Source: Candidatus Omnitrophota bacterium
Lineage (GTDB): Bacteria; Omnitrophota; Omnitrophia; Omnitrophales; Aquincolibacteriaceae
DNA: 64,000 nucleotides
Reading direction: 5' to 3'
NCBI GenBank assembly: GCA_030698625.1
Contig: JAUYMS010000048.1
Span: 218,404-282,403, forward strand
Shown here piece by piece: positions 39,670 to 57,787 of the stretch. Positions within the stretch are counted from its first letter, which is position 1. Each line of letters starts with the position of its first letter. Below the pieces are notes generated by a model. It saw only the letters and a list, made by a program, of their open reading frames with translations, did no database searches and was not told where the DNA came from. The position numbers and the translations under genes were made by a program.

Positions 39670-39676
39670 AATCGAC

Positions 39677-41998: not shown

Positions 41999-42016
41999 GA
42001 CGTGCAGGAGGAAACC

Positions 42017-42400: not shown

Positions 42401-42492
42401 CAGGTTTCGGCAGGAAATTATTGTCACTAGGAACGGTATCGTGGCTCTTGAGAAATTGAAGGGAGAATTCCTAACAGGAATCAAACCAGATC

Positions 42493-44877
42493 ATGCTAAA
42501 AGGCTCGAGTATCTCGTCACGGCTCATTTTCGGATTTTTGGCTATTGCGCTTCTCGTAGCCGGGGTGAGCATTTTTTCCTTTCGTGAGCTGCGGAAGGTT
42601 GAAGGACCTCTTCGAGCTGATATCCCCCGCGCCCTGACCGAAATCGAAACCACATCACGCCTCGACAGCCTTGCCACGAAAATCCGCCTCTATGACCAGA
42701 TCCTGACGGAAGCCGCGCGCGAATATGTATCTACGGGCGATCGGCAATGGAAATTCCGCTATAAGGATTTCGAGCCCAAGTTGGATGCGGCGATCAAGGA
42801 GGCCATTCACCGCGGAGATCATGAGGACGAGAGTCTTTTCTCGGAGCTTCAGAAGGCGAAGCTCGTTTTTGTCCACGTGGAACTCCAAGCGCTCGGTTAC
42901 GTAGGGCAGGGTCAACAGGAAGAGGCGGCTCAAGTGCTTGAGAGCCTTGATTACTGGAACGCTAAACGCGAATACAAGAAAATTCTGGAAGAGTATGCTG
43001 AAAGACGCAACCAGAAATTCGACGACACCTTTCAAGTCACGGCGAAAAATGTTGAATCTATTGTTCAGGCGACGAGGAAAACGGTTCGTGATTCCATTAA
43101 CCTGCTCTCCATTCTCAGCGGATTGGCCCTTGTGCTCGCCATAGCGCTGGGAATTTTCATTGCGCGCTCAATTTTGAATCCGCTTCGATCCTTGCAGCAG
43201 GGCACCGAGATCGTCGGTAAAGGCAATCTTGACCATCGCATTGAAACCAATTCCAAGGACGAAGTCGGGCAGTTGGCGCGGGCCTTTAACGAGATGTCTC
43301 TGAAATTAAAGAATTCCTATGCCGGTCTTGAAGGCAAGGTGAGGGAAAGGACCAAGGAACTCGGCGATGCTCTCGAGGATCTCGAGAAAGCCAAGTCTCA
43401 GATCGAAGAAGAAAAGGCCAAGGACGAAGCCATTCTTGCCAGCATCGGAGAGGGCATGATTGCAACCGATCGAGAGGGCAAGATCATGATGATGAACAAG
43501 CAAGCCGGGCTGATGCTCGACTTGCGCGAACGGGACGTTGTGGGCAAAGTCTTCGGGGATGTGATCCGCAACCAGAACGATAAGGGGGAACCCATTACGG
43601 GTGAGCAGTCTCCTCTTTACAACTCGTTGTCGACCGGAAAGAAAATCGTCGCAACAGCCTATTACGAGCGCAAGGACAGAACTAAATTTCCTGCCGCAAC
43701 TACGGTATCACCGATCGTTCGCGACGGGAAAACAGTAGGTGCCATTGGGATATTTAGGGACATTACGCACGAAAAAGAAGTTGATCGGATGAAAACTGAG
43801 TTTATATCTACCGTATCTCACGAATTGCGAACTCCTCTCACCGTCATTCGCGAGGGGGTTTCGCTTGTCATGGATAACATCCTGGGGCCGACAACCGAGG
43901 AGCAGCAGAACTTTCTTAATCTGGCGCTTAGCGACATTGATCGCCTAGCCCGCATTATCAATAATCTACTCGATGTCGCCAAGATTGAGGCCGGAAAAAT
44001 GGGTCTCAAGCGGGAGCGAACTGATGTTAACGAACTTGTCCGGGATGTTGTTTCCACTTTCAAGGCCAGTGCCGAGGGCAAGGGGTTAAAAATCAGGCCT
44101 AAAGTTCCGGCCGAAAAACTCGAGCTTTATATTGATCGGGATAAGATCATCCAGGCCTTTACCAATATTATCGGTAACTCCCTCAAGTTTACCGAGAAGG
44201 GACATATTGATGTTTATATCGAAGATAAAGGAGAGTGCTTGGAATGCGGCATATCTGACACGGGCCGAGGGATGTCCGAGCAGGATTTAGCAAAACTCTT
44301 CAGCAAGTTTCAGCAGTTTGGCCGTACTGACGGCGGCGGCGAGAAGGGAACCGGCTTAGGCCTGTCCATCGCAAAGGGGATTGTGGAACTCCATCAGGGA
44401 AAAATCTGGGTTGAAAGCGAACTCGACAAGGGGACAAGCTTTAAGTTTCAAATACCCAAGTATTCCCCGAAGGAGCTCTTCCGTGGGTATGTTGTGCGCG
44501 GACTGCGCGACGCTGTCAACCAGGGCTCGTCGCTTTCGGTGTTTTCCTTTGGCGTCAAGGATTGGGAAAACGTGAGACGGGACCTAGGATCCAATAAATC
44601 TCCCGAAGTTGTGGAATACCTGGAAGATGCCGTGAAGGCGCACCTCAAGAACCGAGAGGACCAGACAGTCACTGACGATAACGCCGTATTGATGGTGTTG
44701 CCGGCCATTGAAAAGAAGAAGGCGGAGTTCGTTGCCGCGGATGTTAAAAAATCGTTCGCCGATATTTTGGCCAAACACGGATTCAACGGCAACATTCAGA
44801 TGGACTACCGACTTGCAAGTTATCCTGACGATGGTAGTACGGAAGAAGATCTGCTCTGTATCGTGAGAGGAACTTAA
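42493..44877 (+). CDS. membrane sensor histidine kinase: TM, ~190-aa periplasmic domain, TM, HAMP, PAS, HisKA, HATPase_c, degenerate GGDEF-like domain
   Basis: It is a paralogue of the 39677 kinase: the two share a long block from EEEK(L/A)KD...IATDREG... through ...[25 protein letters not shown]. It carries the HAMP motif (LARAFNEM). The C-terminal segment ...TDDNAVLMVLP...YRLASYPDDGSTEEDLL is GGDEF-like without the motif. Confidence 0.85.
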   Translation: MLKGSSISSRLIFGFLAIALLVAGVSIFSFRELRKVEGPLRADIPRALTEIETTSRLDSLATKIRLYDQILTEAAREYVSTGDRQWKFRYKDFEPKLDAAIKEAIHRGDHEDESLFSELQKAKLVFVHVELQALGYVGQGQQEEAAQVLESLDYWNAKREYKKILEEYAERRNQKFDDTFQVTAKNVESIVQATRKTVRDSINLLSILSGLALVLAIALGIFIARSILNPLRSLQQGTEIVGKGNLDHRIETNSKDEVGQLARAFNEMSLKLKNSYAGLEGKVRERTKELGDALEDLEKAKSQIEEEKAKDEAILASIGEGMIATDREGKIMMMNKQAGLMLDLRERDVVGKVFGDVIRNQNDKGEPITGEQSPLYNSLSTGKKIVATAYYERKDRTKFPAATTVSPIVRDGKTVGAIGIFRDITHEKEVDRMKTEFISTVSHELRTPLTVIREGVSLVMDNILGPTTEEQQNFLNLALSDIDRLARIINNLLDVAKIEAGKMGLKRERTDVNELVRDVVSTFKASAEGKGLKIRPKVPAEKLELYIDRDKIIQAFTNIIGNSLKFTEKGHIDVYIEDKGECLECGISDTGRGMSEQDLAKLFSKFQQFGRTDGGGEKGTGLGLSIAKGIVELHQGKIWVESELDKGTSFKFQIPKYSPKELFRGYVVRGLRDAVNQGSSLSVFSFGVKDWENVRRDLGSNKSPEVVEYLEDAVKAHLKNREDQTVTDDNAVLMVLPAIEKKKAEFVAADVKKSFADILAKHGFNGNIQMDYRLASYPDDGSTEEDLLCIVRGT

Positions 44878-44881
44878 TTCT

Positions 44882-45247
44882 ATGCCTAAAAAGATCTTGG
44901 TTGTCGATGACGAAACGAATATTGTGCTTGTGATTAGTTCACGGTTGAAGGCAAACGGGTTTCAAGTTGTTACGGCCGAATGCGGACGGGATGCTCTCGA
45001 AAAAGCGGACAGCGAAAAACCGGACCTTATCGTGCTGGATGTCATGATGCCTTCACCCGATGGCTATGAGGTGTGCCGTATGCTGAAAGGAGACCCGAAA
45101 CATAAGAACGTGCCTGTCATTATTTTGACGGCGAAGGTCTCGGAGCAGGACCGGTCAAAAAGCGCTGAATGCGGGGCAGATGCGTTTGTCACAAAGCCCT
45201 ATAGCCCGAGCGAATTGCTGGGAAAAATAAAGGATCTCATTCCTTAA
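44882..45247 (+). CDS. single-domain response regulator (REC only, PilH-like)
   Basis: Contains ILVVDDETN...DLIVLDVMMPSPDG...TKPY. Confidence 0.85.
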   Translation: MPKKILVVDDETNIVLVISSRLKANGFQVVTAECGRDALEKADSEKPDLIVLDVMMPSPDGYEVCRMLKGDPKHKNVPVIILTAKVSEQDRSKSAECGADAFVTKPYSPSELLGKIKDLIP

Positions 45248-45263
45248 CGCGGAAGGAGCATTG

Positions 45264-46985
45264 ATGCTGGTGGATCACGATCAGAATGCCTTAGGTGAAA
45301 AACTGGTTCAGGCAGGAGCCCTGACGCAGGAGCAATTCTCTGCGTCGGCAGGCGATGCGACTGCGAACGGGACTTCTCTTGTTCGTCAGCTCTTGAGCTC
45401 CGGCTTGGTTTCCAAGGCAAAAGTTTACGAGACCCTGGCCGACGTCTACGGGGTGCCTTACATTGATATTTCGAATTTTCAAATATCCCCGGATGCCATC
45501 AAATGCCTCTCGGGAGAAATCGCTCACCGCTACCGGGCAATTCCCCTCTTCAAGATCGGCGAGACCTTAAATGTCACTATGGAGAATCCTGCTGATGTGG
45601 GGGCTGTGGACCGTATTACTCAGAAAAGCAAATGCCATGTCGATGTCTGTTTATCGGCGCCCGAAGATATCGAAGAGGCACTGCGAACTCATTACGGTTC
45701 CGGCAACGCCATCAATGAGTTGTTGGCAACTTTTAGCAAGGAGAGAAGCCATCGGTACAGGGAATTGCAGAAGAAACCCGCACAGGGTTTGTCCTTCATG
45801 CCGGCTCCGGTCAAGAAGGAGATGGGAGTCAAGCCTGTTATTCAGCTCGTGGATCTTATCATCAAGCAGGCCTACGAGGAGGGCGCCAGTGATATTCACA
45901 TCGAGCCGGAGGAAAAGATGCTCCGCGTACGCTATCGGGTCGATGGGGTTCTGCATGAGGCCGCTGAGCCGCCCAAAGAAATGGAGTCGGAGATCATTTC
46001 CCGTATTAAAGTACTTGCTGAAATGGACATTGCCGAAACGCGCATTCCACAAGACAGCCGCATTAAAATGGATATTCAAGGAAAGAACGTGGACATGCGT
46101 GTCTCCACCATGCCGACCGTTTATGGCGAAAATGTGGTAATCCGCATACTCAAGGACGCCGGCGCGGTTTTAGACCTTTCGAGTCTGGGTTTTACCGACG
46201 AGATGAAAAAGATGTTTGAAGGCATCATCCGGCATCCTTACGGCATGATCCTGGAGACGGGCCCGACCGGTTCCGGTAAAACGACCACACTCTATGCGGC
46301 GTTACGTATGATCAATACCGTTGAGCGCAACATTGTTACCATCGAAGATCCGGTGGAATACAAACTGCCGCTCATCCGCCAAATTCCAGTCAATGTGAAA
46401 GCAGGCCTGACTTTTCCGACGGCCCTGCGCTCGATCTTAAGGCAGGATCCCGATGTCATTATGGTCGGTGAAATACGCGACCAAGAAACCGCGGAAATCG
46501 CGATCCAGTCTGCACTGACAGGCCATCTCGTGCTCTCAACACTTCATGCCAACACGGCGGCTGGGGTGGTGACTCGTCTTGTTGATATGCATGTGGAGCC
46601 GTTTCTGGTCGCATCGTCTGTAATTGGGGTCGTATCTCAGCGTCTTATACGGTCTATTTGTTCCAAGTGCAAAGAGGAGCACAAGCCGACCGAGCTTGAA
46701 TTGACAGCGCTCAAGTGGGAAGGTCCGGAGCCGCTGCCGGCCTTCAAAGGGAAGGGCTGCCGCCAGTGTCACGACACGGGGTACAAGGGCCGTGTCGGTG
46801 TTTTTGAAATGATGCGCATGAATGATCGCATTCGAAAAAAGATCGTGTCAAACGCGTCAGCGGCCGAAATTCAAAGTGAGGCACGCGAGACCGGTAATGC
46901 AAGTTTGCGCGACGATGCCATCGTTAAAATCAAGATGGGAATGACGACAATTGAAGAAGCGTTAAAGTCAGTCGAGATAGAATAG
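45264..46985 (+). CDS. type II secretion/type IV pilus assembly ATPase (GspE/PilB family) with N-terminal GspE_N/MshEN-like domain
   Basis: Walker A motif GPTGSGKTT, with Asp and His boxes and a tetracysteine cluster (CSKC...CRQCHDTG). The N-terminal roughly 150 aa are GspE_N-like. Confidence 0.9.
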   Translation: MLVDHDQNALGEKLVQAGALTQEQFSASAGDATANGTSLVRQLLSSGLVSKAKVYETLADVYGVPYIDISNFQISPDAIKCLSGEIAHRYRAIPLFKIGETLNVTMENPADVGAVDRITQKSKCHVDVCLSAPEDIEEALRTHYGSGNAINELLATFSKERSHRYRELQKKPAQGLSFMPAPVKKEMGVKPVIQLVDLIIKQAYEEGASDIHIEPEEKMLRVRYRVDGVLHEAAEPPKEMESEIISRIKVLAEMDIAETRIPQDSRIKMDIQGKNVDMRVSTMPTVYGENVVIRILKDAGAVLDLSSLGFTDEMKKMFEGIIRHPYGMILETGPTGSGKTTTLYAALRMINTVERNIVTIEDPVEYKLPLIRQIPVNVKAGLTFPTALRSILRQDPDVIMVGEIRDQETAEIAIQSALTGHLVLSTLHANTAAGVVTRLVDMHVEPFLVASSVIGVVSQRLIRSICSKCKEEHKPTELELTALKWEGPEPLPAFKGKGCRQCHDTGYKGRVGVFEMMRMNDRIRKKIVSNASAAEIQSEARETGNASLRDDAIVKIKMGMTTIEEALKSVEIE

Positions 46986-46987
46986 AT

Positions 46988-48241
46988 ATGAATTTCAAAT
47001 ATAAAATTCGAGACGGTAAAGGTCATGTGTCGACAGGTTTTGGCCAGGCCGAAAGCCGCGATTCGTTGATGAGGGAATTGCGTGAACGCGGATTTTCTCC
47101 CATCGCGATCATTCCGGCGGCCAAGGACGAGACCGGAAAGGCCGGGGGGAATACTGTCGCCTCGCGTAAGAAGAAATCGATCTGGAATATGAAGATTGGG
47201 CGGGTCGTCAAAGACGAAGACCTTCTCCTCTTTACCCGAGATCTCTTGAGTTTGGTCCATGCCGGTTGCCCTCTGGTCTCCGGTATTCGTGATGTGGCAA
47301 GCCAAATCAAAAACGTGCACTTCCGGGATATTTTGGAGAATATTAGCGATGATATCAATGCCGGAAGCAAGCTGTCGGAGGCTCTAAGGCGGCACCCTGC
47401 CGTCTTCTCGCCCTTTTTTGTTAATACCATTCAGGCCGGCGAGCAGTCGGGAAGGCTTGAGGCAATTTTGGGACGGATGATTCAGACTTTGGACAACGAC
47501 CTTGAGACAAAGATGATGATAAAAAATGCAGTAAGATATCCGGTTATCGTTCTGTGCTTTTTGGGCGCTGCGTTTACAGTGATTGTCACGGTGGTCATTC
47601 CGAAGATATCCGGTGTCTTTACGAAATTTGACACAGCGCTTCCGCTACCGACCCGTATCCTGATTGCGATTGGAAATTTCAGCCAATCCTACGGACTTTT
47701 TATCGCCATTGCGTTGATCGGCGCTGTGATACTTGTCTCGTTTTATAAGAAGACAAAGCCGGGCCGCTTTGTGTGGGACGGCATAATGCTTCGATTACCT
47801 GTTTTTGGGGAACTGATCAAGAAGGCGGCGTTGGTGCGTTTCGCCACCGCACTGCAGACTTTATATGCAAGCGGCATCGTTATTACGGATGCCCTTGCGA
47901 CGTGTGCAGTGGTTGTGGGAAACGAGGTCGTGGGAGCCGCAATTCTGCAGTCTGCCGAGCGTATGAAAGAAGGGCTTTCACTTTCAGAGGCGCTCAAGGA
48001 GAATCAGCTATTTCCGCCCATGGTCATCGGCATCATTACGATGGGAGAAAAGACGGGAAATTTGGAAAACATGCTTGCGGAAATCGTGGAACATTACGGC
48101 CGCGATATCCGCTACATGACAAAAACTATCGGCACATTGATCGAACCCATCCTCACGGTCTTTTTGGGCCTGATGATTTTAGTTTTAGCTTTGGGGGTCT
48201 TTTTGCCGATGTGGAACGTGATGAAGCTATTTCGTCACTAG
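46988..48241 (+). CDS. type II secretion/type IV pilus platform protein (GspF/PilC family)
   Basis: A 417-aa protein with two T2SSF repeats and three transmembrane helices. It lies 2 nt after the ATPase gene. Confidence 0.88.
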   Translation: MNFKYKIRDGKGHVSTGFGQAESRDSLMRELRERGFSPIAIIPAAKDETGKAGGNTVASRKKKSIWNMKIGRVVKDEDLLLFTRDLLSLVHAGCPLVSGIRDVASQIKNVHFRDILENISDDINAGSKLSEALRRHPAVFSPFFVNTIQAGEQSGRLEAILGRMIQTLDNDLETKMMIKNAVRYPVIVLCFLGAAFTVIVTVVIPKISGVFTKFDTALPLPTRILIAIGNFSQSYGLFIAIALIGAVILVSFYKKTKPGRFVWDGIMLRLPVFGELIKKAALVRFATALQTLYASGIVITDALATCAVVVGNEVVGAAILQSAERMKEGLSLSEALKENQLFPPMVIGIITMGEKTGNLENMLAEIVEHYGRDIRYMTKTIGTLIEPILTVFLGLMILVLALGVFLPMWNVMKLFRH

Positions 48242-48292
48242 AGTAGCAGCCGTAGTAACAGAAGTAACACTGAACCAGAGGAGGTAAGTCAA

Positions 48293-48685
48293 GTGAAGTA
48301 TTCTAAGAAAAATCAAAGAGGGTTTACCTTAATTGAATTGGTCATGGTGATCGTCATCCTAGCCGTATTGGGTGCCGTAGCCATTCCGATTTATGTCGAC
48401 CTGTCGGGTGAGGCGAATTCGGCGGCAGAGGAGGGCGTTGTCGGCGGTGTTCGCGCCGGCGTTGCGACCTACTTTATCGATCCGGCTCGCGGAAACCGCA
48501 CATCGTATCCGTCGGCATTAGGTACGGCCACAAACGCCGCTTGTAGTAAAACCAATGCGTGTTTCGCCACTGTGTTGCAACAAGGCGGCGTGACGCAGGG
48601 TTGGACAAAGACCGGTGCGTTGGCGTATACGGGTCCGAATGGCGGAACCTATACCTTTAACACGACGACAGGGGCCTTCTCGTAA
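48293..48685 (+). CDS. major pilin/pseudopilin with prepilin-type N-terminal cleavage/methylation signal
   Basis: A GTG start preceded by an AGAGGAGG ribosome-binding site. The class III signal ...QRG|FTLIELVMVIVIL is present. The protein is 130 aa. Confidence 0.85.
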   Translation: MKYSKKNQRGFTLIELVMVIVILAVLGAVAIPIYVDLSGEANSAAEEGVVGGVRAGVATYFIDPARGNRTSYPSALGTATNAACSKTNACFATVLQQGGVTQGWTKTGALAYTGPNGGTYTFNTTTGAFS

Positions 48686-48770
48686 GCTAGGCACTTCATC
48701 TTCGGATGGTGGTGGGTTAGTCGCGGGGATTCTCGGCGTCTGAGCGTGTGTCGTCTTATGCAAGCGTACA

Positions 48771-48805
48771 TATAAAGACTGCGAGTGATTCTAAAGACTG
48801 CGAGT
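48771..48805. repeat. tandem direct repeat, AAAGACTGCGAGTG x2 with a 20-bp period, in the pilin/pseudopilin intergenic region
   Basis: The sequence reads tatAAAGACTGCGAGTGattctAAAGACTGCGAGTGgttc, about 35 bp upstream of the next gene. Confidence 0.6.
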
Positions 48806-48838
48806 GGTTCGTAAACTTTGCCGGGGAAGGGTCAATTT

Positions 48839-49384
48839 ATGGGAGGAAAGCCGAAAAAATGGATTTCCGGTTTTACCGTCATAGAATTGGTCATGGCCAT
48901 TGTTGTTATGACGGTCGTAAGTGTAACGGCCGTCCCTATCCTGCAAAACCAGCCGCGGACGCAGGCTCAGTATGCAATTTATAAGGTCCGCTCCGATCTC
49001 CGTTACGCGCAGATGACCGCCATACAGACGCAGTTACGCACGCGTGTCGTGTTTAACTCTGCCGCTGAATCCTATGACCTGGAAATCGAAACTTCGCCCG
49101 GCACATGGGTCGCTTTGGCCGAACCCAATGCCGGCCAGAACTATAGCGTTACGTTTCCTTCTGACGCCGACTTTCCAAACGTGGATATCTCTGACGTCGA
49201 TCTGAATAACTTAAATACGGTTATTTTCGACAGCGTAGGGGCGCCTTTTGATGCGAATGACACTGCACTGACAGAACCGGCTTATATGGAATTAAATTCA
49301 ATTTACCGTATCGAATTCCAGAGACAGACCGGCAACATGCTCATTACTGTAGTGGGCGGCGGCGGAGGTCCCTGCGGGGGGTAA
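48839..49384 (+). CDS. minor pseudopilin (GspH/FimT-like) with prepilin N-terminal signal
   Basis: ATG at 48839. Contains ...KKWISG|FTVIELVMAIVVM. The C-terminus ends in a Gly run, GGGGGPCGG. Confidence 0.75.
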   Translation: MGGKPKKWISGFTVIELVMAIVVMTVVSVTAVPILQNQPRTQAQYAIYKVRSDLRYAQMTAIQTQLRTRVVFNSAAESYDLEIETSPGTWVALAEPNAGQNYSVTFPSDADFPNVDISDVDLNNLNTVIFDSVGAPFDANDTALTEPAYMELNSIYRIEFQRQTGNMLITVVGGGGGPCGG

Positions 49385-49387
49385 AAT

Positions 49388-49780
49388 ATGCGGCGACAAA
49401 CAACATTCCAGCGCGGTTTCACGATGATTGAATTGATCATCGCTATCGTGGTCCTCTCTATTGCTATCGGCACGCTGGGGAATGTTCTGGCCAATATGAC
49501 AACTCAGGCGGTATTACCAAGGTCTCTGAATACATCGACCCATTTGGCGGAGCAAGAGCTCGAGCGCGTCTCCGGCCTTCGGTTTTCAGCGGTTGCTAAT
49601 GAGGGCCCCACATCTTACACGGGGAATTTTTCGGATTACAGTTACCAGGTGGCGGTTTCCGCCGTGCCTGCAACCCTCGCGACAGATCCGGCGCAGGCGC
49701 AATACAAACAGGTTGCTGTGACGGTTTCCCATGCGACGGGGGGGTCCGTCACCTTGACGACGGTGGTAACAAACAACTAG
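49388..49780 (+). CDS. minor pseudopilin (GspI-like) with prepilin N-terminal signal
   Basis: Contains ...FQRG|FTMIELIIAIVVL. The protein is 130 aa. Confidence 0.75.
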   Translation: MRRQTTFQRGFTMIELIIAIVVLSIAIGTLGNVLANMTTQAVLPRSLNTSTHLAEQELERVSGLRFSAVANEGPTSYTGNFSDYSYQVAVSAVPATLATDPAQAQYKQVAVTVSHATGGSVTLTTVVTNN

Positions 49781-49782
49781 AT

Positions 49783-50361
49783 ATGATACGAACAATCAAT
49801 GAAAAATGTTTTCGCCAACGCACGAGCTCGCAAAGAGGATTCACGTACTTAGAGATGATAATGGCCATCGTGATCATCAGCGTGATCGCGACGATCGCAG
49901 GGCCCGTCCTCGCCATGGCGGTGGATGCCATTACTCTGCATCTCGACGACGCGAACCTGGGAGAGGGGGGACGGATTGCCATCGCGCGAATGACGCGGGA
50001 AACACGCCGTCTTAGGAACGATGAAAGCGTTGTCACGGCGACGGGTGTCGAATTTGAATTTGTGGATGTCGATGACGTGCAGATCCGATATCGGCTTGTG
50101 GGCACTGACTTGATGCGGCGCGAAAGCGCGGCAGGGACAGAGTCTGACTTAATCGCGCAGGTGCAAGCCTCAGGCCTTGCCTTTATTTACTATGACGATG
50201 ACGGGAATACGATCGCTACGCCGGCCGCCGGACTGGGAACCAGTACCGATATCAGGCGTATCGAAATCCAGTTGACGCTGAGCGACGGGACCAACGCGCT
50301 GCCGCTTGTTACGATTGTCAGACCGAGGAACTTGAGACATGAGTCAAATCTATTTTCGTAA
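49783..50361 (+). CDS. minor pseudopilin (GspJ/PulJ-like) with prepilin N-terminal signal
   Basis: Contains ...SQRG|FTYLEMIMAIVII. The protein is 192 aa. Confidence 0.75.
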   Translation: MIRTINEKCFRQRTSSQRGFTYLEMIMAIVIISVIATIAGPVLAMAVDAITLHLDDANLGEGGRIAIARMTRETRRLRNDESVVTATGVEFEFVDVDDVQIRYRLVGTDLMRRESAAGTESDLIAQVQASGLAFIYYDDDGNTIATPAAGLGTSTDIRRIEIQLTLSDGTNALPLVTIVRPRNLRHESNLFS

Positions 50362-51853
50362 ACGAAAAGAGGAACGCGGGGTCGTCCTCGTGGGAACGCT
50401 GGGGCTGCTGGTGTTTCTGGGCCTGTTTGGCGCCGTCGGAACTTCTGTGACGTTGAGCAGCGTTGCGGTGCATGCGACCCATATCCAGGGGACTCAGTCT
50501 CTGGCGATTGCCGACGCGGGAGCGGAGTGGTATTTAGAGCAACTAGAGGGTGATGCGGACTGGACAAATGAGGTAAATCAAACCCTGACCTTTGCCGAAG
50601 GCAGTTTCACTATTTCTATTGCTGCTGCGACAGCGGCTCAAGTCACTTTTACTTCAACGGGATCCGTAGTATCACCGTTGAGCGGGGTTACCGTTCAGCG
50701 CACGGTGACCATGACCGCAGAAAAGCTTCCGCCCGCTTTTAAGTTTGCTCTGTACCAAGGCCGAGATCCGGGGAGCAACTTTCGTCTTACAACGACAAGT
50801 GGTAATCACACGACCGTCACCGGCGATATGTGGTCCCGCGGTGTTGTACGCATTGATGTTAACAACTCGGTAACGGGAACCACATATGTTGCCGACTCGG
50901 AGAGTGTGATCGGAGCCGGCACGTATACTGCAAAGCTGATTGCGGCGCCTTACCTTTCGATGCCCGTCATTGATGCTACCGCCTATACGACACTGATCTC
51001 TGGTTACAACGCGCTACTGGATGCGAACTCGTCAACGGTGAGCCGGACGCTCACGAATACAAATTTTGACATCGCAGTGGCGAGTCCGGATTGTTCGGGA
51101 AGTCCCGTCGTCTGTAACTTCCGCAATTTCACGACACGTGGTTTAGGCGGCACCGTGAATATTACCGGTAATGGAACGATTTGTATCAATCGTACGGGCA
51201 GCTTACATAACGGCAGTCAGGTAAATAGCACGAGTAATCTCGTCATCACGCCCGATGCCGGAGGCTCGATTACCGTCATCACGAACCGGAATCTGAATAT
51301 CGGAAAGAACAACAACCCGACTGTCAGCTGTAACGGGAATTGCACTTTTTACTCGAGGACGCAGGCGAGTAATCAACGTCTTCGCATCTTCGGGCAAAAT
51401 ACGTCTCTCAACGACGTGCTGCTGATGAGTAACCGCAGGGTCACGGTACAAAACGGTGCGGACATCGGATCCGATAGCGTTGCGTTTGTGAATTATGCGG
51501 GTGATAACAGTAATAACCGCTTTGAAATCTTTGGGGCCGCCGGTGTGACGACCTTCGACGGCACCTTGATAAGCCTGTCGCGGCGTACCGATGGACTCAC
51601 GATCAGAAACGGCGGCGCCAGCAAAGCGAATGTCTCGGTGACGGGGCTCGTCTATGAGCGGGGAACCGCAACGACGGGGGGATGCTTCATTGAGGATGCG
51701 TCCGTGTCCGGGAGCGTGGTTTGTAACGTTTATCAGAATAATCGAATCCGAAACGCTGCGATTATCTACAGTACGGCCAGTTTGCCGTCAACACCGCCGG
51801 CCGGCTTTGAAAACTCCGTATCTGTCCAATCTAATTCCTGGGACGGACTCTAG
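50339..51853 (+). CDS. large PilX_N-domain/GspK-like pilus-associated protein; Ser/Thr/Asn/Gly-rich and beta-helix-like
   Basis: The N-terminus ...RGVVLVGTLGLLVFLGLFGAVGTSV resembles PilX_N. About 400 aa of low-complexity T/S/N/G-rich sequence follow, with many N-x-S/T triplets. Confidence 0.65.
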   Translation: MSQIYFRKRKEERGVVLVGTLGLLVFLGLFGAVGTSVTLSSVAVHATHIQGTQSLAIADAGAEWYLEQLEGDADWTNEVNQTLTFAEGSFTISIAAATAAQVTFTSTGSVVSPLSGVTVQRTVTMTAEKLPPAFKFALYQGRDPGSNFRLTTTSGNHTTVTGDMWSRGVVRIDVNNSVTGTTYVADSESVIGAGTYTAKLIAAPYLSMPVIDATAYTTLISGYNALLDANSSTVSRTLTNTNFDIAVASPDCSGSPVVCNFRNFTTRGLGGTVNITGNGTICINRTGSLHNGSQVNSTSNLVITPDAGGSITVITNRNLNIGKNNNPTVSCNGNCTFYSRTQASNQRLRIFGQNTSLNDVLLMSNRRVTVQNGADIGSDSVAFVNYAGDNSNNRFEIFGAAGVTTFDGTLISLSRRTDGLTIRNGGASKANVSVTGLVYERGTATTGGCFIEDASVSGSVVCNVYQNNRIRNAAIIYSTASLPSTPPAGFENSVSVQSNSWDGL

Positions 51854-51866
51854 AAAGGACAACTCT

Positions 51867-52088
51867 ATGCTCTACTCAGCAATGATTCTTGGGGCTTTGA
51901 CCTTGGTCTTTGGCTGCTTACTCCTATTTGGCCGGGAGAAGCTGAAGGCGATGAGTGATAAGCTCAACCGCGTTGTACTTGCGGAAACCTGGATGTGGGA
52001 CCACCGGGTCGCCATCGGAATTCTCTTGATCGGGCTCTCGGGTTTTCTTTTTGCCGGGGCCTACTTCCTGGTGAAGTTCAACTCATAA
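51867..52088 (+). CDS. small membrane protein (74 aa, two transmembrane helices), unknown function
   Basis: An AAAGGA ribosome-binding site lies 8 nt before the ATG at 51867. It has two hydrophobic helices. The ORF track extends it upstream. Confidence 0.5.
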   Translation: MLYSAMILGALTLVFGCLLLFGREKLKAMSDKLNRVVLAETWMWDHRVAIGILLIGLSGFLFAGAYFLVKFNS

Positions 52089-52154
52089 AAATCCGCCAAA
52101 ATTCCCGTCTAAACATTTCCCTGATATCTCCGATATTTAATACGAGCCCTAAGG

Positions 52155-52191
52155 AACAGAGAACAGGGAAGTGCTCCTAACTTGTTCTCAG
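52155..52191. promoter_or_regulatory. imperfect inverted repeat cAGAGAACAgg-n14-cTTGTTCTCAG upstream of the MerR-type gene: candidate operator
   Basis: The arms GAGAACA (52159-52165) and TGTTCTC (52183-52189) are exact, and 9 of 11 positions match over the extended arms. It lies about 45 nt upstream of ATG 52234. Confidence 0.4.
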
Positions 52192-52233
52192 TTACCGATC
52201 CGAGAAACCCTTGGCCTCAAGGAGAGTCTATCT

Positions 52234-52476
52234 ATGAAACGTTTAATGCGCCGCACGGAATTAGCGAGGGCACTCGGCACAACCCCGCCCACGGTGAAGT
52301 ATTACACCTCTCTCGGGCTTTTCCCAGTTGAGAAGAAGACCGACCACGGCCAATACTTATACAACTACGAAGCGGTCAAAGGGCGATATGTGCGAATTCT
52401 TGAGTTGAAAGAAAAGCGTTTGAGGATTGATGAAATCAAAGACCGCTTAAGAATAGAAGTCTTAATCCAGAACTGA
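52234..52476 (+). CDS. small MerR-family HTH transcriptional regulator
   Basis: An AAGGAGAG ribosome-binding site precedes the ATG at 52234. The N-terminus MKRLMRRTELARALGTTPPTVKYYTSLGL is a MerR-type HTH. The C-terminal helix is short and the protein is about 80 aa. Confidence 0.7.
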   Translation: MKRLMRRTELARALGTTPPTVKYYTSLGLFPVEKKTDHGQYLYNYEAVKGRYVRILELKEKRLRIDEIKDRLRIEVLIQN

Positions 52477-52507
52477 TTCAGCAAAAAACTCCGCGAAGGA
52501 GGCCAAA

Positions 52508-53338
52508 ATGAAGACCATTGCCATTGCAAACCAGAAGGGTGGATGCGGTAAGACCACAACTGCCGTCAATCTCAGCGCTTGTCTCGCACAGCGAGGGTGC
52601 CGCGTCCTGCTCGTCGACCTCGATCCCCAGGCACACGCGACTCTGGGTGTCGGGATTGATCCGTACAAATTGGAGGAATCCGTCTACGACGTCCTCCTTA
52701 AACCGGACCGTTCGGTGCAGGATATCGTCCGGCGTACCGAGGTCAAAAACCTGTGGGTTGCGCCGTCGAACATTCTGCTTTCGGGTGCCGATATCGAGTT
52801 GGTCAATCGCATGGGACGCGAGAGGGTTCTGGAGGAGGTCTTTTCGAATGTTACAACTCTGTATGACTACGTCATCATCGACTGTGCGCCTTCCCTGAGC
52901 CTGCTCACCGTGAATGCCATGAATTTTGTGCAGGAGATCCTTATCCCGATTCAGGCCCATTACTATGCCATGGAGGGCATGAAGCAGCTCTTCAGCACCA
53001 TCGATGAAGTCAAAAAGCGCCTAAACCCCGATCTGAAAATCCTAGGCATTCTGTTGACCATGGTGGACACGCGCACGAACATCTGCCGGGAAGTCGTCCG
53101 AGGGGTTCGTGATTATTTTCAGGATAAGGTTTTTAAGACTGAAATCCACATCAACGTAAAATTAACCGAAGCGCCGAGTGCCGGTAAACCCATTACGGTC
53201 TATGACCCCTGTTCGGTAGGGGCAAAGGAATACGAAGATTTGGCCAGCGAGGTTCTCGGCGTCGAGAAGGAAGTTCCTCGGGAAACGACAACCGCACCCC
53301 AAGGAGAAACGGTCTTCCATGGCGAAGAAGCGGTCTAG
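52508..53338 (+). CDS. ParA/MinD-family P-loop ATPase
   Basis: Deviant Walker A motif KGGCGKTTTAVNL, together with DLDPQ and IIDCAPSLS. The protein is 276 aa. It lies between the pseudopilin genes and the PilM-like gene. Confidence 0.85.
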   Translation: MKTIAIANQKGGCGKTTTAVNLSACLAQRGCRVLLVDLDPQAHATLGVGIDPYKLEESVYDVLLKPDRSVQDIVRRTEVKNLWVAPSNILLSGADIELVNRMGRERVLEEVFSNVTTLYDYVIIDCAPSLSLLTVNAMNFVQEILIPIQAHYYAMEGMKQLFSTIDEVKKRLNPDLKILGILLTMVDTRTNICREVVRGVRDYFQDKVFKTEIHINVKLTEAPSAGKPITVYDPCSVGAKEYEDLASEVLGVEKEVPRETTTAPQGETVFHGEEAV

Positions 53339-55058
53339 CGGCCTTAGCAAGAAAATACCGGCGATATTTCAAGGTGTTCCCGACATCGAATCGACTTCGC
53401 GGCGGGCGTCCGCTCAGGAGCACCGTGCACAGAGCGGCACGAAAAAGGGCTTCGGAGCACGGCGCGCCCCCGGAACCTTTCGTATCCTGTTTGAAGTAGG
53501 CGGTTCTACTGCCAAGGCAATGGGTGTTGCGAAGCGGGGCGGGCGATGGACAGTCGTCGAATGCCGGACGTTTCATGCGCTTACGGACAAGCAAGGAAAA
53601 GTTGACTTCAAATGGGATGAACTCGGCAAGTGGATCGCCGAGACAACGGCGGAAATTGCGGGCAACTCGTCCTATGAAGCACGTTTACTGCTTGTAGATT
53701 CAGGGATTTATTTAGGGGAGACAGAAAGGCCGGACGTTGCGGCGAAGGAGCTCAAGGAAGCCTTGATATGGCAGGTTGCCGAAAATCTTCCTTTTCCCGC
53801 CGAAGAGTCGACGCTCCGCTTTGAAGAGCATGAAGACAAGGTCCTTGTTGCGGCGGTAGAGAATGTCTATTTAGAGACCGTTTTAAAGTGTTTCCACAGT
53901 GCCGATGTCTATCCGGCTGTGGTGACTTTACTGCCGGTTGCTTATCAGGCCCTCAACGACCAATATGCACCCATTACATCGGGCAATGTTATGGTTATCC
54001 ACATCTCAAAGTTCCGCACTTTTATTTTGGCCTTTCGCGGCGGGGTCTTTCACTCAATACGCGAGCTATCGCTTGGCGGAGATCATATTACGCAGGCCAT
54101 GATGGGTACCCTTGTCGTGGATGCCAATCAAATCAACATTGGTTATGATGAGGCTCAGGCGCTCAAAGAGTCCCTCGGTCTTCCGACCCACAACCTCATG
54201 CCGGACCCCAGCGAACCGAAGCATTCCCAACTCTCAGCGAGAATTCGACCTATCTTCGAGAAAATGGCCAGCGAATTTCGCAGCTCGAGCACTCAATTTG
54301 AACAGGCGATCGGCGGCGAGAAGGTAGAATCGATTTTTCTGGCCGGCGGTGGCGCCGAAATGAATGGCATTCAGGAATATTTTTCCGGTCAATTGAATTT
54401 GCCGGTTAAAAATCTCGATCTCTCGAGCGTTGACCCTTCGTTAAGTACTGCATTGGCCGGTGTGGCAGGCATGGCCTTTGTTCCCGAAAATCGTCTGAAT
54501 TTTGCAAGCACGGAAGACCGCTTGAAGCCGCGCTTTGAAAAGTATCGCGACATTCTAAAGATTGTCATGCTGGGGATAGGGGGTCTCTTATGCCTGGTCT
54601 TGTTGGGTCTGGGGATGCAGATTGTGGGCAAGAAGCAGGAGCTCCGGGAACAGCATGCGGCTTTCCGTGAGATGGGCGGTAGTGATGAAAAGCTAATTCA
54701 GCTCGACTTTATGCTGGAAAAAATCACGGCGACGAAGGATTTGCGCAAAAGCGTAATCAAGCCCGATCCGCCTCATGGCACCGTACTGCGTGAATTAAGC
54801 CACCTGGTAATGCCGGCAATGGTATTTCGCGAGATGGACTTTCGGAGGGCTCCGAGCCCGACAGCGCAGTTTAAAGGGATTATTCAATTGGGGCCGCGTT
54901 CTCCGGACATCATCCTATCGGAATTTCTCGAGGGCTTGAACAAATCATCCGTGTTCCGCGATGCCCGCCTCACATCCCGCAGCGGGTCCGAAGAGGGGAC
55001 TGCAGGTGAATTGCAGTTCAACGTTCAAACGGAATTGGTGGTGGGCGATGAATCTTAA
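53319..55058 (+). CDS. PilM(actin-like)-TM-PilN fusion, GspL-like inner-membrane assembly protein with a ~55-aa basic N-terminal extension
   Basis: An AAGGAG ribosome-binding site precedes the ATG at 53319. A PilM-like actin fold (FEVGGSTAKAMGV...) is followed by the single transmembrane helix ILKIVMLGIGGLLCLVLLGLGM and a periplasmic PilN-like domain. Confidence 0.75.
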   Translation: MAKKRSSGLSKKIPAIFQGVPDIESTSRRASAQEHRAQSGTKKGFGARRAPGTFRILFEVGGSTAKAMGVAKRGGRWTVVECRTFHALTDKQGKVDFKWDELGKWIAETTAEIAGNSSYEARLLLVDSGIYLGETERPDVAAKELKEALIWQVAENLPFPAEESTLRFEEHEDKVLVAAVENVYLETVLKCFHSADVYPAVVTLLPVAYQALNDQYAPITSGNVMVIHISKFRTFILAFRGGVFHSIRELSLGGDHITQAMMGTLVVDANQINIGYDEAQALKESLGLPTHNLMPDPSEPKHSQLSARIRPIFEKMASEFRSSSTQFEQAIGGEKVESIFLAGGGAEMNGIQEYFSGQLNLPVKNLDLSSVDPSLSTALAGVAGMAFVPENRLNFASTEDRLKPRFEKYRDILKIVMLGIGGLLCLVLLGLGMQIVGKKQELREQHAAFREMGGSDEKLIQLDFMLEKITATKDLRKSVIKPDPPHGTVLRELSHLVMPAMVFREMDFRRAPSPTAQFKGIIQLGPRSPDIILSEFLEGLNKSSVFRDARLTSRSGSEEGTAGELQFNVQTELVVGDES

Positions 55059-55650
55059 CGCATCGATCAAGCTGCCCCCTGGCTCCGCTGCCCTGCTTCG
55101 CATGGCAGTGAGGACGCAATTCGCGCATTGGGCAGCGGCCGTAATTGTCTCATTGGCTGTTGCCGTAACGGTTGTTGTTTTGCCGCTGACAAGGCATCTG
55201 AGGGTGCTCCATGAGCGTGTCGAGAAAGTTCAGGTGAAGATGGAAAAGGTAGAGGGGATCTCGCGCGGAGCTCGGGATTTCAACAGAATATTGGATGAAC
55301 TTTCCGACGAATTCCGCGAGCTCAAAACGCAAGTGCTTCAGCCCGGGGAGCAGGCCAAGGTCATTTCATTACTGACACAGACCGCCGAAGATCTGAATAT
55401 CACAATCTTGAGCATGAACCCCATTTTGAAGAAAGAGACCGCGGAAGCAGGGGAAGAGAAAAAGATCCGTCCGGCCCTCTTCGAGGTAGAAATGTCCTGT
55501 CATTATAAAACCCTGGGTGTCTTTTTTGAGCGATTAACGGCAGCTCCGTTGATTCTTACGGTCGAAGGTTTCGACGCGCGGCCTGAGGTGCCGAATGCAC
55601 CCGTGCTTAATGTCCGCCTCTTGGTGGCGGCGTATGTCGAGTGGCTATGA
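55048..55650 (+). CDS. PilO/GspM-like bitopic assembly protein
   Basis: The ATG at 55048 overlaps the upstream stop. The protein has an N-terminal transmembrane helix, a coiled coil and a periplasmic domain. Confidence 0.65.
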   Translation: MNLNASIKLPPGSAALLRMAVRTQFAHWAAAVIVSLAVAVTVVVLPLTRHLRVLHERVEKVQVKMEKVEGISRGARDFNRILDELSDEFRELKTQVLQPGEQAKVISLLTQTAEDLNITILSMNPILKKETAEAGEEKKIRPALFEVEMSCHYKTLGVFFERLTAAPLILTVEGFDARPEVPNAPVLNVRLLVAAYVEWL

Positions 55651-56039
55651 TGAAGGCGAGCCGAGCAGCGAAATTTTTGGGGTTAATCGCGGTGATTGCG
55701 TGGGCGGTATTTGAGGGCCCCGCGGTGTCCGTTAACGCAGCTGTTGAAGGAGGAATGATTCAGCGCGGCTGGGGAAGGGATCCGTTTGTTCCCCTCGATT
55801 ACGAGCGGGCAGCGGTAGCGGCCAAAGAGAAGCTCATGCCGGAGGCGGAGACTAAAGATGAAAGTTATTGGCTTTCGGGTGTGCTCTATCGCAAAGGGCG
55901 CAGCGTTGCGATCATTAACCGGGTTTTGGTGCGAGAGGGTGATGAAATCTTCGGTGCGAAAGTCGTTAAGATATTGCCGGACCGTGTTCTGATGAGTAAA
56001 GCAGGCAAAGAAATCATAATTCGATTGGGCGTGGGATGA
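55647..56039 (+). CDS. PilP/GspC-like periplasmic protein
   Basis: A signal or anchor sequence, with a C-terminal beta domain (...GVLYRKGRSVAIINRVLVREGDEIFGAKVVKILPDRVLM) typical of PilP. Confidence 0.6.
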   Translation: MMKASRAAKFLGLIAVIAWAVFEGPAVSVNAAVEGGMIQRGWGRDPFVPLDYERAAVAAKEKLMPEAETKDESYWLSGVLYRKGRSVAIINRVLVREGDEIFGAKVVKILPDRVLMSKAGKEIIIRLGVG

Positions 56040-57787
56040 GACATTCATTCGTGAAGAAAATCTTTGGAATCAGCCTCAGCTTCATGATGGCTCTGACCGG
56101 TCCAGGGTTAGTCCGGGCGGAAGTTACGGGGCCGCAATTCGGCCAAAACGGGGCCGGCGAGGAGGATACTTACCTGCAACTCCACAACGCGGATATTCAG
56201 GACGTGCTTCGTCTTATCGCGGAGGAATATGATCTTAACATTGTCATCGCTGACGATGTTGTCGGCACGATTTCAATGCGTCTTAAACGTGCGACTCTTG
56301 TCAACACGCTTGATGCGATTCTTCTTGCACGCGGTTATGATTATGACATCCACGACAACATCATTCGCGTGGCACCCGTCGCCATTGTTGATGCCGAGCG
56401 GGCCAAGCGCGTGGATAAGCAAGAGTTGGAGGCCTTGGTTCCGGAAGTCATTGCTCTGAGTTATCTTGATGCCAACGACATCCTTGGGGTGGTTCAGTCG
56501 CTACTCACATCGCGCGGGTCCGTTCGGGCTCTGGAACGGCGCGCTCATAAGGGATTCCGTTTCGGGTCGGGATCCTCCGGTGACACCGGGGGTTCTTCCT
56601 CGTCGGGAGGGAACTCTGCGTCTTCCGGAGGTGATTTCGGCGGGCTCATCAGGTCGCGCGTCGAGGGCGATAACGACAAGCCGCGCTCAAATACCTTGCT
56701 TGTGGTTGATATCCGATCTCAGATTGAGCGGATCAAAGAAGTGATTCGTGAAGTTGATGTGGCTCCGCAACAAGTTCTGATTGATGCCAGAATCCTTGAG
56801 GTCGATACCGACACGCTCGAAGACCTCGGTCTCGATTTTAACAGTGAGAATTCTTTGACTGCGAGCGGAGATAAGAGCAACGCCCTGAACTTTGACCTTA
56901 ACAGCGATACTTCCTCCACGGGTGTCAATTCAGGCATTTTCACGACCGCCTTTCCGGGGGCATCAGATGCCGGGCTACGCACGATCTTCCGCCGTTTAAA
57001 CGGAGAAGATTTCACGGCGATATTGCATCTCCTTTTACAGGATGAACGGACTAAGACGCTTTCGGCGCCCAAGATTTTAACCATAGAAAATCAGGAGGCA
57101 GCCATTCTGGTCGGTGAGCAATTTCCGATCTTTGAGTCGAATGTCTCCGATCAGGGTACGGTTACTGAAACCCTGTCGTTTTTTCAACCGATCGGCATCA
57201 GCTTGCAGGTTCTTGTCCAGGTCACTCCGAATAAAGATATCAACATGATCATCCATCCGACAGTAAGCTCTATCGGAGCCTTTGTGACGGGAACGAGCGG
57301 GCTGACTCAGCCGCGAATCAATATCCGCGAAGCCGATACGCGCGTACTTATCAAGAACGGAGAAACGCTGGTAATCGGAGGCCTGCTTGAGGATATTGTC
57401 GATGAGAAAAAATATGGTATCCCTTTCCTGAAGGATATGCCCCTCGTGGGGAATCTGTTCACACGCAGACAAGTTGACATCGATCAGCGCAACTTGCTTA
57501 TCTTTATTACACCGCGTGTTGTCGGTTTGGATGATGCAGCGCTTTCTGAGACCGAACAGCTGACTTATCAGGCGCTCGAAGACCCGGCCGCATACGGTTT
57601 TCTCCACGAGCGGCGCTCAACGATCGACAGCATTTTCGAGGGCGCAAAAACGAACTTTGAAACGGGTCATCCTACCGTTGCCCGCGCACAATTCCTGCGC
57701 GTGTTAAGTCTGGACCCGCATCACAAGGGGGCTATCAAGCATCTTAAGGAGTTGGAGGCCCTGCCGCGGGAGCGGCCCATTGGGTAA
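56036..57787 (+). CDS. secretin (GspD/PilQ family) outer-membrane channel
   Basis: A signal peptide, then N-domains, a Gly/Ser-rich linker and the secretin domain (...VLIKNGETLVIGGLLED...GIPFLKDMPLVGNLF...LLIFITPRVV). Confidence 0.9.
   Translation: MRHSFVKKIFGISLSFMMALTGPGLVRAEVTGPQFGQNGAGEEDTYLQLHNADIQDVLRLIAEEYDLNIVIADDVVGTISMRLKRATLVNTLDAILLARGYDYDIHDNIIRVAPVAIVDAERAKRVDKQELEALVPEVIALSYLDANDILGVVQSLLTSRGSVRALERRAHKGFRFGSGSSGDTGGSSSSGGNSASSGGDFGGLIRSRVEGDNDKPRSNTLLVVDIRSQIERIKEVIREVDVAPQQVLIDARILEVDTDTLEDLGLDFNSENSLTASGDKSNALNFDLNSDTSSTGVNSGIFTTAFPGASDAGLRTIFRRLNGEDFTAILHLLLQDERTKTLSAPKILTIENQEAAILVGEQFPIFESNVSDQGTVTETLSFFQPIGISLQVLVQVTPNKDINMIIHPTVSSIGAFVTGTSGLTQPRINIREADTRVLIKNGETLVIGGLLEDIVDEKKYGIPFLKDMPLVGNLFTRRQVDIDQRNLLIFITPRVVGLDDAALSETEQLTYQALEDPAAYGFLHERRSTIDSIFEGAKTNFETGHPTVARAQFLRVLSLDPHHKGAIKHLKELEALPRERPIG

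Follow-up and report, generated by a model that had tools for sequence, protein, structure and literature searches.

The ParA-family ATPase encoded in the 64,000-nucleotide stretch of Candidatus Omnitrophota contig JAUYMS010000048.1 analyzed here (the window, at its full length) is probably a dedicated component of the type IV pilus (T4P)- or type II secretion system (T2SS)-like machine in whose locus it lies, and neither a chromosomal partition ParA nor an incidental insertion. Together with a short activator-type peptide on the protein encoded directly downstream, it likely forms a module that controls the positioning of the pilus machine, its number, or its assembly. An earlier interpretation made from the letters alone (the sequence-only reading) had described an 80-amino-acid (aa) MerR-type gene with its own ribosome-binding site, followed by a ParA with the Walker A sequence KGGCGKTT, and both are present as claimed, with coordinates and Pfam matches in agreement. 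What it overlooked is the strongest evidence, namely, the ParB-like peptide at the N terminus of the downstream platform protein. The argument turns on four features of the window:

52234-52476, + strand: MerR-like gene, 80 aa (ATG at 52234; stop ends at 52476)
52508-53338, + strand: ParA, 276 aa (ATG at 52508; TAG at 53338)
53319-55058, + strand: PilM-PilN fusion, 579 aa, a cytoplasmic/inner-membrane platform protein
53319-53381, + strand: ParB-like N-terminal peptide MAKKRSSGLSKKIPAIFQGVP of the PilM-PilN fusion, a predicted ParA-interacting/activating tail whose first 20 nucleotides (nt) overlap parA

The first ~20 residues of the PilM-PilN fusion (KKRSSGLSKKIPAIFQGVP) sit on an ~50-residue disordered tail that is cytoplasmic, given that it precedes the single transmembrane (TM) segment of the protein. 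In the AlphaFold2 (AF2) model, residues 1 to 51 have a predicted local distance difference test score (pLDDT) below 50, except for residue 6, and they are followed by a confidently modeled PilM fold. The tail motif reads MAKKRSSGLSKKIPAIFQGVPD in the window and continues into a variable linker; all PilM-N proteins encoded downstream of ParA begin with this conserved basic motif, and typical PilM-N fusions begin directly with the actin fold. Among 150 representative PilM-N relatives, the motif is confined to about 21, most of which are among the closest relatives. The pattern KKxSGLSKKISSIFxGVP is found on the gene right after ParA whether that gene encodes a PilM-PilN fusion or a PilP/GspC-like protein, and a six-frame search of all loci placed it once per locus, always at the N terminus of the gene after ParA; an Auribacterota protein (locus L009) carries two tandem copies. 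At loci L017 and L018, the PilM that does not adjoin ParA begins with the actin fold and lacks the motif, and the GspC/PilP-like neighbor of ParA has it. Such motif-bearing GspC/PilP-like proteins (for example, MSKPRGGLQKRISSIFDGVP and MAKRKPGLHKEVTSIFGGVP) are bitopic and combine a cytoplasmic linker rich in Pro with one TM segment and a domain in the periplasm.

The tail resembles the N terminus of ParB. A regular expression derived from the motif matched genuine ParB N termini in 40 of ~62 control ParA-ParB loci (for example, RKRGLGRGLDALLP), with ~4 off-target matches in ~0.6 Mb read in six frames. The consensus of the pilus partners is maKKksGLsKKISSIFsGvP and that of ParB is kkkGLGRGLdALLp, and the N terminus of Thermus thermophilus Spo0J carries SGLGRGLEALLPK. 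The window peptide is probably much closer to the ParB consensus than the tails of PomX or McdB are. Searching the PDB with a profile of the 25-residue tail alignment gave no match at E≤10, the profile being too short. The peptide MAKNKVLGRG of Helicobacter pylori ParB, in which L7 and R9 are conserved, binds H. pylori ParA (HpParA), and R10 of T. thermophilus Spo0J and K3/K7 of Bacillus subtilis Spo0J are required for ATPase stimulation (PMC11229316). Activators of ParA/MinD ATPases generally work through an N-terminal extension that is short, positively charged, and unstructured, and they are modular (PMC7993993); by its motif, position, charge, and pLDDT, the tail is an extension of this type. 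We consider the downstream machine subunit the likely partner and ATPase activator of ParA through this tail, with both binding and stimulation predicted from sequence features. A different N-terminal peptide, approximately (K/D)KE(L/I)ATN(R/K)LL(E/N)(V/L)LRG, is common to distant PilM-like proteins of 520 to 950 aa (P0271, P0278, P0282, P0291, P0307, P0333, P0339, P0344, and P0347) and may be another portable docking module on pilus platform proteins.

The association of ParA with the machine is conserved. ParAs with the Walker A sequence KGGCGKT lay in T4P/T2SS-like loci in all 19 distinct readable contexts, a sample guided by similarity to the window, and none adjoined parB. The contexts come from Omnitrophota, Auribacterota, metagenome-assembled genomes (MAGs) labeled Chlamydiota, and loci resembling a Sedimentisphaerales protein (the C-terminal sequence of P0080 is shared with P0081, named Sedimentisphaerales by NCBI). 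Omnitrophota homologs with 80%, 66%, 63%, and 59% identity are in pilus-type loci, as are the ParAs of a MAG labeled Chlamydiae (62% identical) and of Candidatus Theseobacter exili (57%), a member of the Auribacterota in the Planctomycetes-Verrucomicrobia-Chlamydiae (PVC) group; for two homologs with 54 to 56% identity, ParA lies between PilM-PilN-PilO and a GspC/PilP-like gene plus secretin. The Omnitrophota-type gene order is (MerR)-ParA-PilMN-PilO-PilP-secretin, with the variant ParA-PilM-PilN-PilO-secretin-PilC; a second order is PilM-PilN-PilO-ParA-[GspC/PilP-like]-secretin (P0080/P0087-type, L017 and L018), and one locus has a third, PilT-PilT-ParA-PilM...secretin. When loci were instead retrieved with a four-sequence PilM-N alignment seed and two peptide patterns, one of them the PilM-N tail motif, ParA was immediately upstream in the seven of seven loci returned. 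The sequence-only reading took retention of the MerR-ParA pair in orthologous loci as the mark of a system component, and the comparison came out in its favor: ParA stands immediately beside platform genes in every related locus retrieved, with the refinement that the MerR-ParA pair, seen in eight loci, is not universal.

In most loci, parA also overlaps the next gene or adjoins it. In the window, the PilM-PilN gene has its ATG within parA, 20 nt from the 3' end, an overlap without an ATGA-type junction, and the argument for coexpression that had been drawn from this overlap stands. Homologous overlaps at the ParA/partner junction (window 53319-53338) occur in L001, L002, L007, L009, L017, and L018. 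An apparent C-terminal ParA motif, "EEKxxGxV," was rejected as a protein motif, given that the same codons encode the MxKKK start of the partner in another frame. With a position that is conserved in several phyla and three locus architectures, and with overlapping genes, we give almost no credence to the idea that the ATPase is an incidental insertion or part of a mobile par module hitchhiking in the pilus operon. The unusual gene content speaks for that idea, and nothing further does; against it are also the uniform GC content and the failure to find ParB or mobile-element genes near the window ParA. The 64-kb window contains no ParB homolog and no second ParA, and its GC content is flat at 0.50 to 0.53, on which ground a recently acquired island was rejected.

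Control loci, obtained by a metagenome scan with the generic second pattern (80 loci, mostly canonical ParA-ParB), showed the converse arrangement. Across 94 distinct ParAs, a Walker A Cys coincided with a T4P context in 17 and with ParB in none, and Val at this position coincided with ParB in 61 and with T4P in none. ParB was within 6 kb of 62 of the 76 non-T4P control ParAs, nearly always directly downstream; no ParB was present in any T4P-type locus read (parS sites were not searched for). The T4P-context ParAs formed one clade apart from the 62 ParB-linked ParAs in a neighbor-joining tree (bipartition bootstrap, 76/100). Clustering with a chromosomal ParA next to parB, which the sequence-only reading had named as the sign of an incidental insertion, was thus not seen, as these ParAs have a clade of their own and are never beside parB. 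The Walker A Cys by itself is not diagnostic of the pilus clade, because the ParA at L098 (2887-3684) combines KGGCGKT with the canonical IPRNVRL and is followed by a ParB-like N terminus (NALGKGLDALI).

The window ParA has a ribosome-binding site, GAAGGAGG, at 52495-52502, and its Walker A sequence occupies residues 10 to 17 (nt 52535-52558). Pfam assigns it to AAA_31 (E=5.1e-64) and CbiA (E=6.9e-27), and the homology database contains the identical P0001, recorded on a contig of 346,779 bp. It scores 111 bits against the NCBIfam model ParA_partition, for which the cutoff is 180, and no NCBIfam model captures the pilus-locus ParA clade. The signature Lys, switch Asp, and Walker B of the ParA/MinD superfamily are all in place, with K10, K15, T16, D37, D39, and D125 found in 18 of 18 clade members. 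The best PDB sequence matches are ParA (8RAY; 6e-70), T. thermophilus Soj (1WCV; 6e-55), and H. pylori Soj (6IUB; 8e-50), followed at a distance by MinD (3e-16), McdA (1e-13), and FleN (3e-6); no TadZ-named chain is among the matches at E≤1e-5. Judged by these comparisons of sequence, the ATPase is a derivative or paralog of chromosomal Soj/ParA, and membership in the TadZ/CpaE, MinD, or FlhG group was rejected on the PDB and NCBIfam results. The ATPase domain begins at residue 1, with no added receiver-like N-terminal domain of the TadZ/CpaE type, and the NCBIfam model for CpaE homologs matches residues 3 to 42 only (E=6e-6). The 26 C-terminal residues are acidic, Pro/Thr-rich, and variable in length, with no membrane-targeting helix of the MinD/FlhG type, and the MinD models score far under their cutoffs.

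The clade differs from the 62 ParB-linked ParAs at C13 (Val in the latter), H43 (Asn), H/Q151 (Glu), H/R/N214 (Pro), and A225 (aromatic). Two of the residues concerned are invariant across the ParB-linked set, E151 (the Glu of QCE(Y/F)YALEG) and R215 (the Arg of IPRN). In 18 of 18 clade members, E151 is replaced by His or Gln; R215 becomes Ile, Val, Lys, Arg, or another residue, and P214 becomes His, Arg, or Asn. Source annotations name the clade ParAs "chromosome partitioning protein," a label that is probably wrong.

TadZ/CpaE, a pole-localized hub, had been cited by the sequence-only reading as the known precedent, and it remains the closest functional analogy, although the ATPase itself derives from Soj/ParA. 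We considered whether the window ParA might likewise be a static scaffold that recruits the platform or the PilB ATPase to a landmark, with hydrolysis unimportant and the tail serving only to dock. TadZ/CpaE is the only published ParA/MinD-family precedent in a pilus system, where it is needed for the localization and assembly of Tad/Flp pili (PMC11407121), and the two cases share a superfamily protein encoded in a type IV filament locus. However, the window ParA belongs to another branch of the superfamily and lacks the receiver-like N-domain and, as described above, any TadZ-named PDB match or full-length CpaE match; it retains a full set of catalytic motifs, with the signature Lys and D39 included and all of them conserved in the clade, the tail keeps the basic residue that stimulates hydrolysis in ParB, and the locus is of the PilB/PilC/PilMNOPQ type and not Tad. 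A static hub of this sort is therefore very unlikely in our estimation. No comparable partner peptide for TadZ is mentioned in the 2024 review (PMC11407121).

Upstream of ParA, two sequence elements accompany the MerR-like gene:

52130-52139, + strand: conserved box CCGATATTTA preceding the palindrome, a possible promoter element
52155-52193, + strand: imperfect palindrome, candidate MerR operator (arms at 52155-52165 and 52183-52193, 91% complementary)

The MerR-like gene is preceded by the ribosome-binding site AAGGAG at 52219-52224 and encodes only a winged helix-turn-helix (HTH) domain, ending at residue 80 after an ~15-residue dimerization helix and lacking an effector domain. Its Pfam matches, MerR_1 (E=5.6e-10) and MerR (E=7.8e-7), are both over the curated cutoffs, and the MerR equivalog models are all far under theirs. 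The AF2 model (pLDDT, 93.8) found its best PDB match by Foldseek in the MtaN-DNA complex 1R8D (TM-score, 0.77; root mean square deviation, 1.4 Å over 70 residues); the winged-HTH fold agreed with MtaN, CadR, and TnrA at TM-scores of 0.72 to 0.81 and with GlnR, BldC, and RacA at lower values of 0.5 to 0.74. The protein is like TnrA, GlnR, and BldC in its length of ~80 aa without an effector domain, and it differs from those short MerR proteins in belonging to a tight family of its own that has PTVKYYT as recognition helix, in its ~15-residue dimerization helix, and in its location directly upstream of pilus-locus ParA. In a profile search, this family comprised ~80 proteins of 65 to 94 aa at E<1e-20 (a 145-aa chimera, P0193, was set aside from this range), after which the E values dropped sharply; the next-nearest MerR relative (E=4e-11) has a phage-like or mobile-element-like context. 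The gene was directly upstream of pilus-locus ParA in eight of eight loci read (the window, L001, L005, L007, L010, L011, L013, and L100), and for at least 20 further members the length of the longest contig equals that of a top ParA match, suggestive of a shared contig. All MerR-bearing loci are from Omnitrophota or are labeled Chlamydiota. The MerR-like protein is accessory, because it is absent from several loci and lineages that keep ParA (one Omnitrophota lineage [L002], L008, Auribacterota, L017/L018-type loci, and L019). P0193, from a 1267-bp ENA contig, joins ParA residues 1 to 65 to a complete MerR-like domain in 145 aa; we rejected it as Rosetta-stone evidence because the contig is only 1.3 kb, the order is the reverse of the genomic one, and the ParA part is truncated, and it is probably a chimera.

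The imperfect palindrome that the sequence-only reading had reported upstream of merR was located at 52155-52193. In an alignment of six merR upstream regions, the CGAT of the CCGATATTTA box is invariant; a scan for the sigma-70 consensus gave no match at 52130-52139. About 20 bp past this box, L001, L010, L011, and L013 all have the conserved palindrome GAGAACGGGGAAGT-n-ACTTCCCCGTTC ahead of merR, and L005 has part of it; in the window it is degenerate, and the conserved half-site GAGAACAGGGAAGT is exact at 52159-52172. The motif occurs once in the 64-kb window and was not found upstream of ParA in the MerR-less L002. We rejected an RNA element or terminator, given that there is no Rfam match and no terminator-like site here and that the 1- to 3-nt center in orthologs better suits a protein operator. 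On the simplest reading, we infer that the palindrome is an operator for merR autoregulation and control of the operon, which would fit the role of local transcriptional switch previously suggested for the MerR protein.

These elements also bear on the possibility that the ATPase is a working partition ParA after all, with the MerR-like protein and palindrome as a non-ParB centromere module and the platform tail tethering ParA to a pole or membrane. The nearest relatives of known structure are indeed chromosomal ParA/Soj proteins, MerR-fold proteins can anchor chromosomes (RacA-DNA is among the fold matches, at low rank), and a single conserved palindrome lies beside the genes. Yet the MerR-like protein has no N-terminal basic tail, with helix 1 starting from about residue 7, and it is the pilus protein that bears the ParB-like peptide; many loci lack MerR and the palindrome, a lone palindrome 40 to 80 bp upstream of its own gene resembles an operator and not a centromere array, and residues found without exception in ParB-linked ParAs are lost from the clade. 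We regard a chromosomal function as quite unlikely and favor, as stated above, a component of the pilus or secretion machine.

The remainder of that machine is encoded around the ParA gene as follows:

39590-45247, + strand: two histidine kinase/response regulator pairs
45261-46985, + strand: PilB/GspE with an MshEN domain, in the upstream part of the same locus
46988-48241, + strand: PilC/GspF
48293-50361, + strand: four pilin-like genes, the last at 49783-50361
50339-51853, + strand: conserved 504-aa protein without a Pfam match
51867-52088, + strand: 73-aa open reading frame (ORF) with two predicted TM helices
54961-55650, + strand: PilO-like protein, likely start near 55048 (Pfam PilO, 0.0017, below cutoff)
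55641-56039, + strand: PilP/GspC/GspB-like small periplasmic protein (weak T2SSB and T2SSC matches)
56036-57787, + strand: secretin, PilQ/GspD-like (Pfam Secretin, 1.6e-43)

The components of a type IVa pilus (T4aP) or T2SS are thus all in the locus: PilB/GspE, PilC/GspF, pilin-like genes, a PilM/N/O/P platform, and a secretin. The MerR-ParA pair had been placed between the pseudopilin and PilM/N genes, and it does lie inside the locus, but the 504-aa protein and the 73-aa ORF intervene between the pilin-like genes and merR. The PilM-PilN fusion matches Pfam PilM_2 at residues 143 to 367 and the NCBIfam models pilM and Amuc_1101_fam, and its AF2 model comprises an actin-like fold, a long TM/coiled-coil helix (residues 398 to 452, with the TM segment predicted at 409 to 427), and a C-terminal alpha/beta (PilN-like) domain. 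The PilO-like position is kept in all Omnitrophota-type loci, and the PilP/GspC/GspB-like position is also conserved. The order of the upstream genes (45261 to 51853) is the same in L001, L007, L009, and L100. The NCBIfam equivalogs PilB, GspF, and PilQ are all below their curated cutoffs, so that the subtype may be T4aP or T2SS; for the secretin, PilQ (1.9e-77) and GspD (7.8e-71) are both under cutoff, and no AMIN domain was detected in the protein. The machine of the window may be either retractile, as a T4aP, or an exporter of the T2SS-like kind, given that the secretin shows no AMIN domain, the PilQ and GspD models fall below cutoff, and no PilT-like ATPase is encoded within the 64-kb window.

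Several neighboring genes merit description in their own right. The 504-aa protein has a conserved place behind the pilin-like genes, as seen in those Omnitrophota-type loci for which that region was recovered; its relatives in L017/L018-type loci carry DUF7305 or pAdhesive_15, and it may be a pilus-tip or adhesin component. The 73-aa ORF has a homolog in L010 that occupies the same position (E=2.5e-9), with a weaker match in L019, and it probably encodes a genuine small membrane protein belonging to the locus. Inputs from cyclic di-GMP surround the locus: a histidine kinase (window 39590-41998) carries a degenerate GGDEF domain and, at its C terminus, a PilZ domain, PilB (45261-46985) bears the MshEN domain, and in some relatives merR is closely preceded by a free-standing PilZ gene (L005, 5128-5517; L100, 7365-7772).

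We envisage that ATP-bound ParA dimers would sit on a matrix, most likely the nucleoid, and that the platform tail would bind these dimers and trigger hydrolysis. The resulting ParA gradient or occupancy would then decide where, how many, or in which daughter cell platforms assemble, a mechanism that agrees with the localization role earlier inferred for the ATPase. The MerR-like protein would most likely bind the palindrome upstream of its own gene and regulate the merR-parA-pilMNOPQ operon. In Myxococcus, the T4aP machine is placed at septal peptidoglycan by AMIN domains; the secretin here is without them, and a cytoplasmic ParA route would fill that gap.

Nucleoid binding is the step of this scheme on which the residues of ParA speak most directly. 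The DNA-contact residues of HpParA are K199, K227, K230, and K247 (PMC11229316), and their equivalents in the window ParA are R194, I215, K218, and C235; the equivalent of B. subtilis Soj R189 is retained. DNA binding is plausible by this comparison and not assured. Several points weigh against our interpretation as a whole. The DNA-binding patch is kept only in part, given that the K227 equivalent is Ile in the window, is variable in the clade, and is Arg in 62 of 62 ParB-linked ParAs and that the K247 equivalent is Cys, and because of this partial retention nucleoid binding by ParA may be weak or lost. The likeness to the ParB peptide spans ~10 residues, the partner at L021 has Ser at the key basic position, and the clade was defined by neighbor joining with moderate support. 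Finally, a secretin-anchored trans-envelope machine is not an obviously mobile cargo, and ParA may gate its assembly rather than transport it.

Some of these points would favor a purely regulatory ATPase, an ATP-dependent switch of the FlhG/FleN kind that caps the number of machines or gates their assembly without a nucleoid gradient or spatial role, binding the platform tail and perhaps modulating the MerR-like DNA-binding protein. The core DNA-binding Arg/Lys at the K227 position is lost or variable, the cargo is membrane embedded, many loci have a gene for a DNA-binding protein directly upstream, and genes for two-component and cyclic di-GMP signaling are found around the locus. On the other hand, many loci keep ParA and the tail without MerR; R189, R194, and K218 are kept; and the FlhG/MinD-type membrane-targeting helix is missing, with an acidic, variable C-terminal tail in its place. 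We judge such a switch unlikely, and we continue to favor control of the machine by a ParA/activator-peptide module.

Relative to ParABS, the window system shows the highest sequence similarity to ParA/Soj and keeps the signature Lys of the deviant Walker A, D37/D39, Walker B, and R189, and its partner, like ParB, has at the N terminus a basic peptide of the form G-L-x-K/R-x-[ILV]-x-[AS]-[ILV]-[FLI]. It differs in that a pilus platform subunit bears the peptide, with no ParB in any locus, and in that the ATPase belongs to a separate clade with C13, H43, H/Q151, A225, and loss of R215. We speculate that the changes in ParA (E151, R215, C13, and H43) and in the peptide (GLGRGL to GLSKKI) insulate the system from chromosomal ParAB. 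The orphan pairs PomXYZ, McdAB, ParC-ParP, and PpfA-TlpT likewise join a ParA-type ATPase to a non-ParB partner with a charged, unstructured N-terminal extension (PMC7993993; PMC11407121); here, in contrast, a pilus or secretion machine that spans the envelope would be the cargo, and the peptide has moved between machine subunits (the PilM-N fusion or the GspC/PilP-like protein).

The 2024 review of positioning by ParA/MinD proteins lists only TadZ/CpaE for pili, along with VirC1 for the type IV secretion system and BcsQ for cellulose secretion, and it names no Soj-type ParA for a PilMNOPQ-type T4P or T2SS machine (PMC11407121). An Omnitrophota genomics paper describes T4aP clusters, and its passages under the terms pili, pilus, secretin, Tad, and PilM contain no mention of a ParA in these clusters (PMC10066038). 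Open-access full text yielded nothing relevant on the tail motif or on ParA with PilM, PilN, PilO, or secretin. A ParA plus activating-peptide system with a new class of cargo and a transplanted ParB tail thus appears to be new, in that we found no description of it in the open-access literature. We also entertain, with slightly more doubt than conviction, a broader proposal: that this is an unrecognized ParA/activator class in several PVC-group lineages, in which the cargo is a trans-envelope type IV filament machine and a ParB-type peptide has been transplanted onto the subunit encoded after ParA. A link between machine and nucleoid would then hold each ultra-small cell to one or a few machines and secure their inheritance, replacing the AMIN/septal-peptidoglycan route and remaining insulated from chromosomal ParAB by the ParA and peptide changes.

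ATPases belonging to the ParA/MinD family are a general bacterial solution for the positioning of large cargo, and the placement and counting of pilus and secretion machines are known in few model bacteria, through polar landmarks, the AMIN domains of PilQ, and TadZ/CpaE. The locus type described here offers a sequence-defined and testable ATPase/peptide pair that would add a trans-envelope nanomachine to the cargos of ParA, and it would present the ParB activating peptide as a portable module that evolution has moved between proteins. Type IV pili are thought to be central to the lifestyle of the Omnitrophota (PMC10066038), and the ParA/peptide pair would provide a handle on cell organization in these ultra-small and probably host-dependent bacteria.

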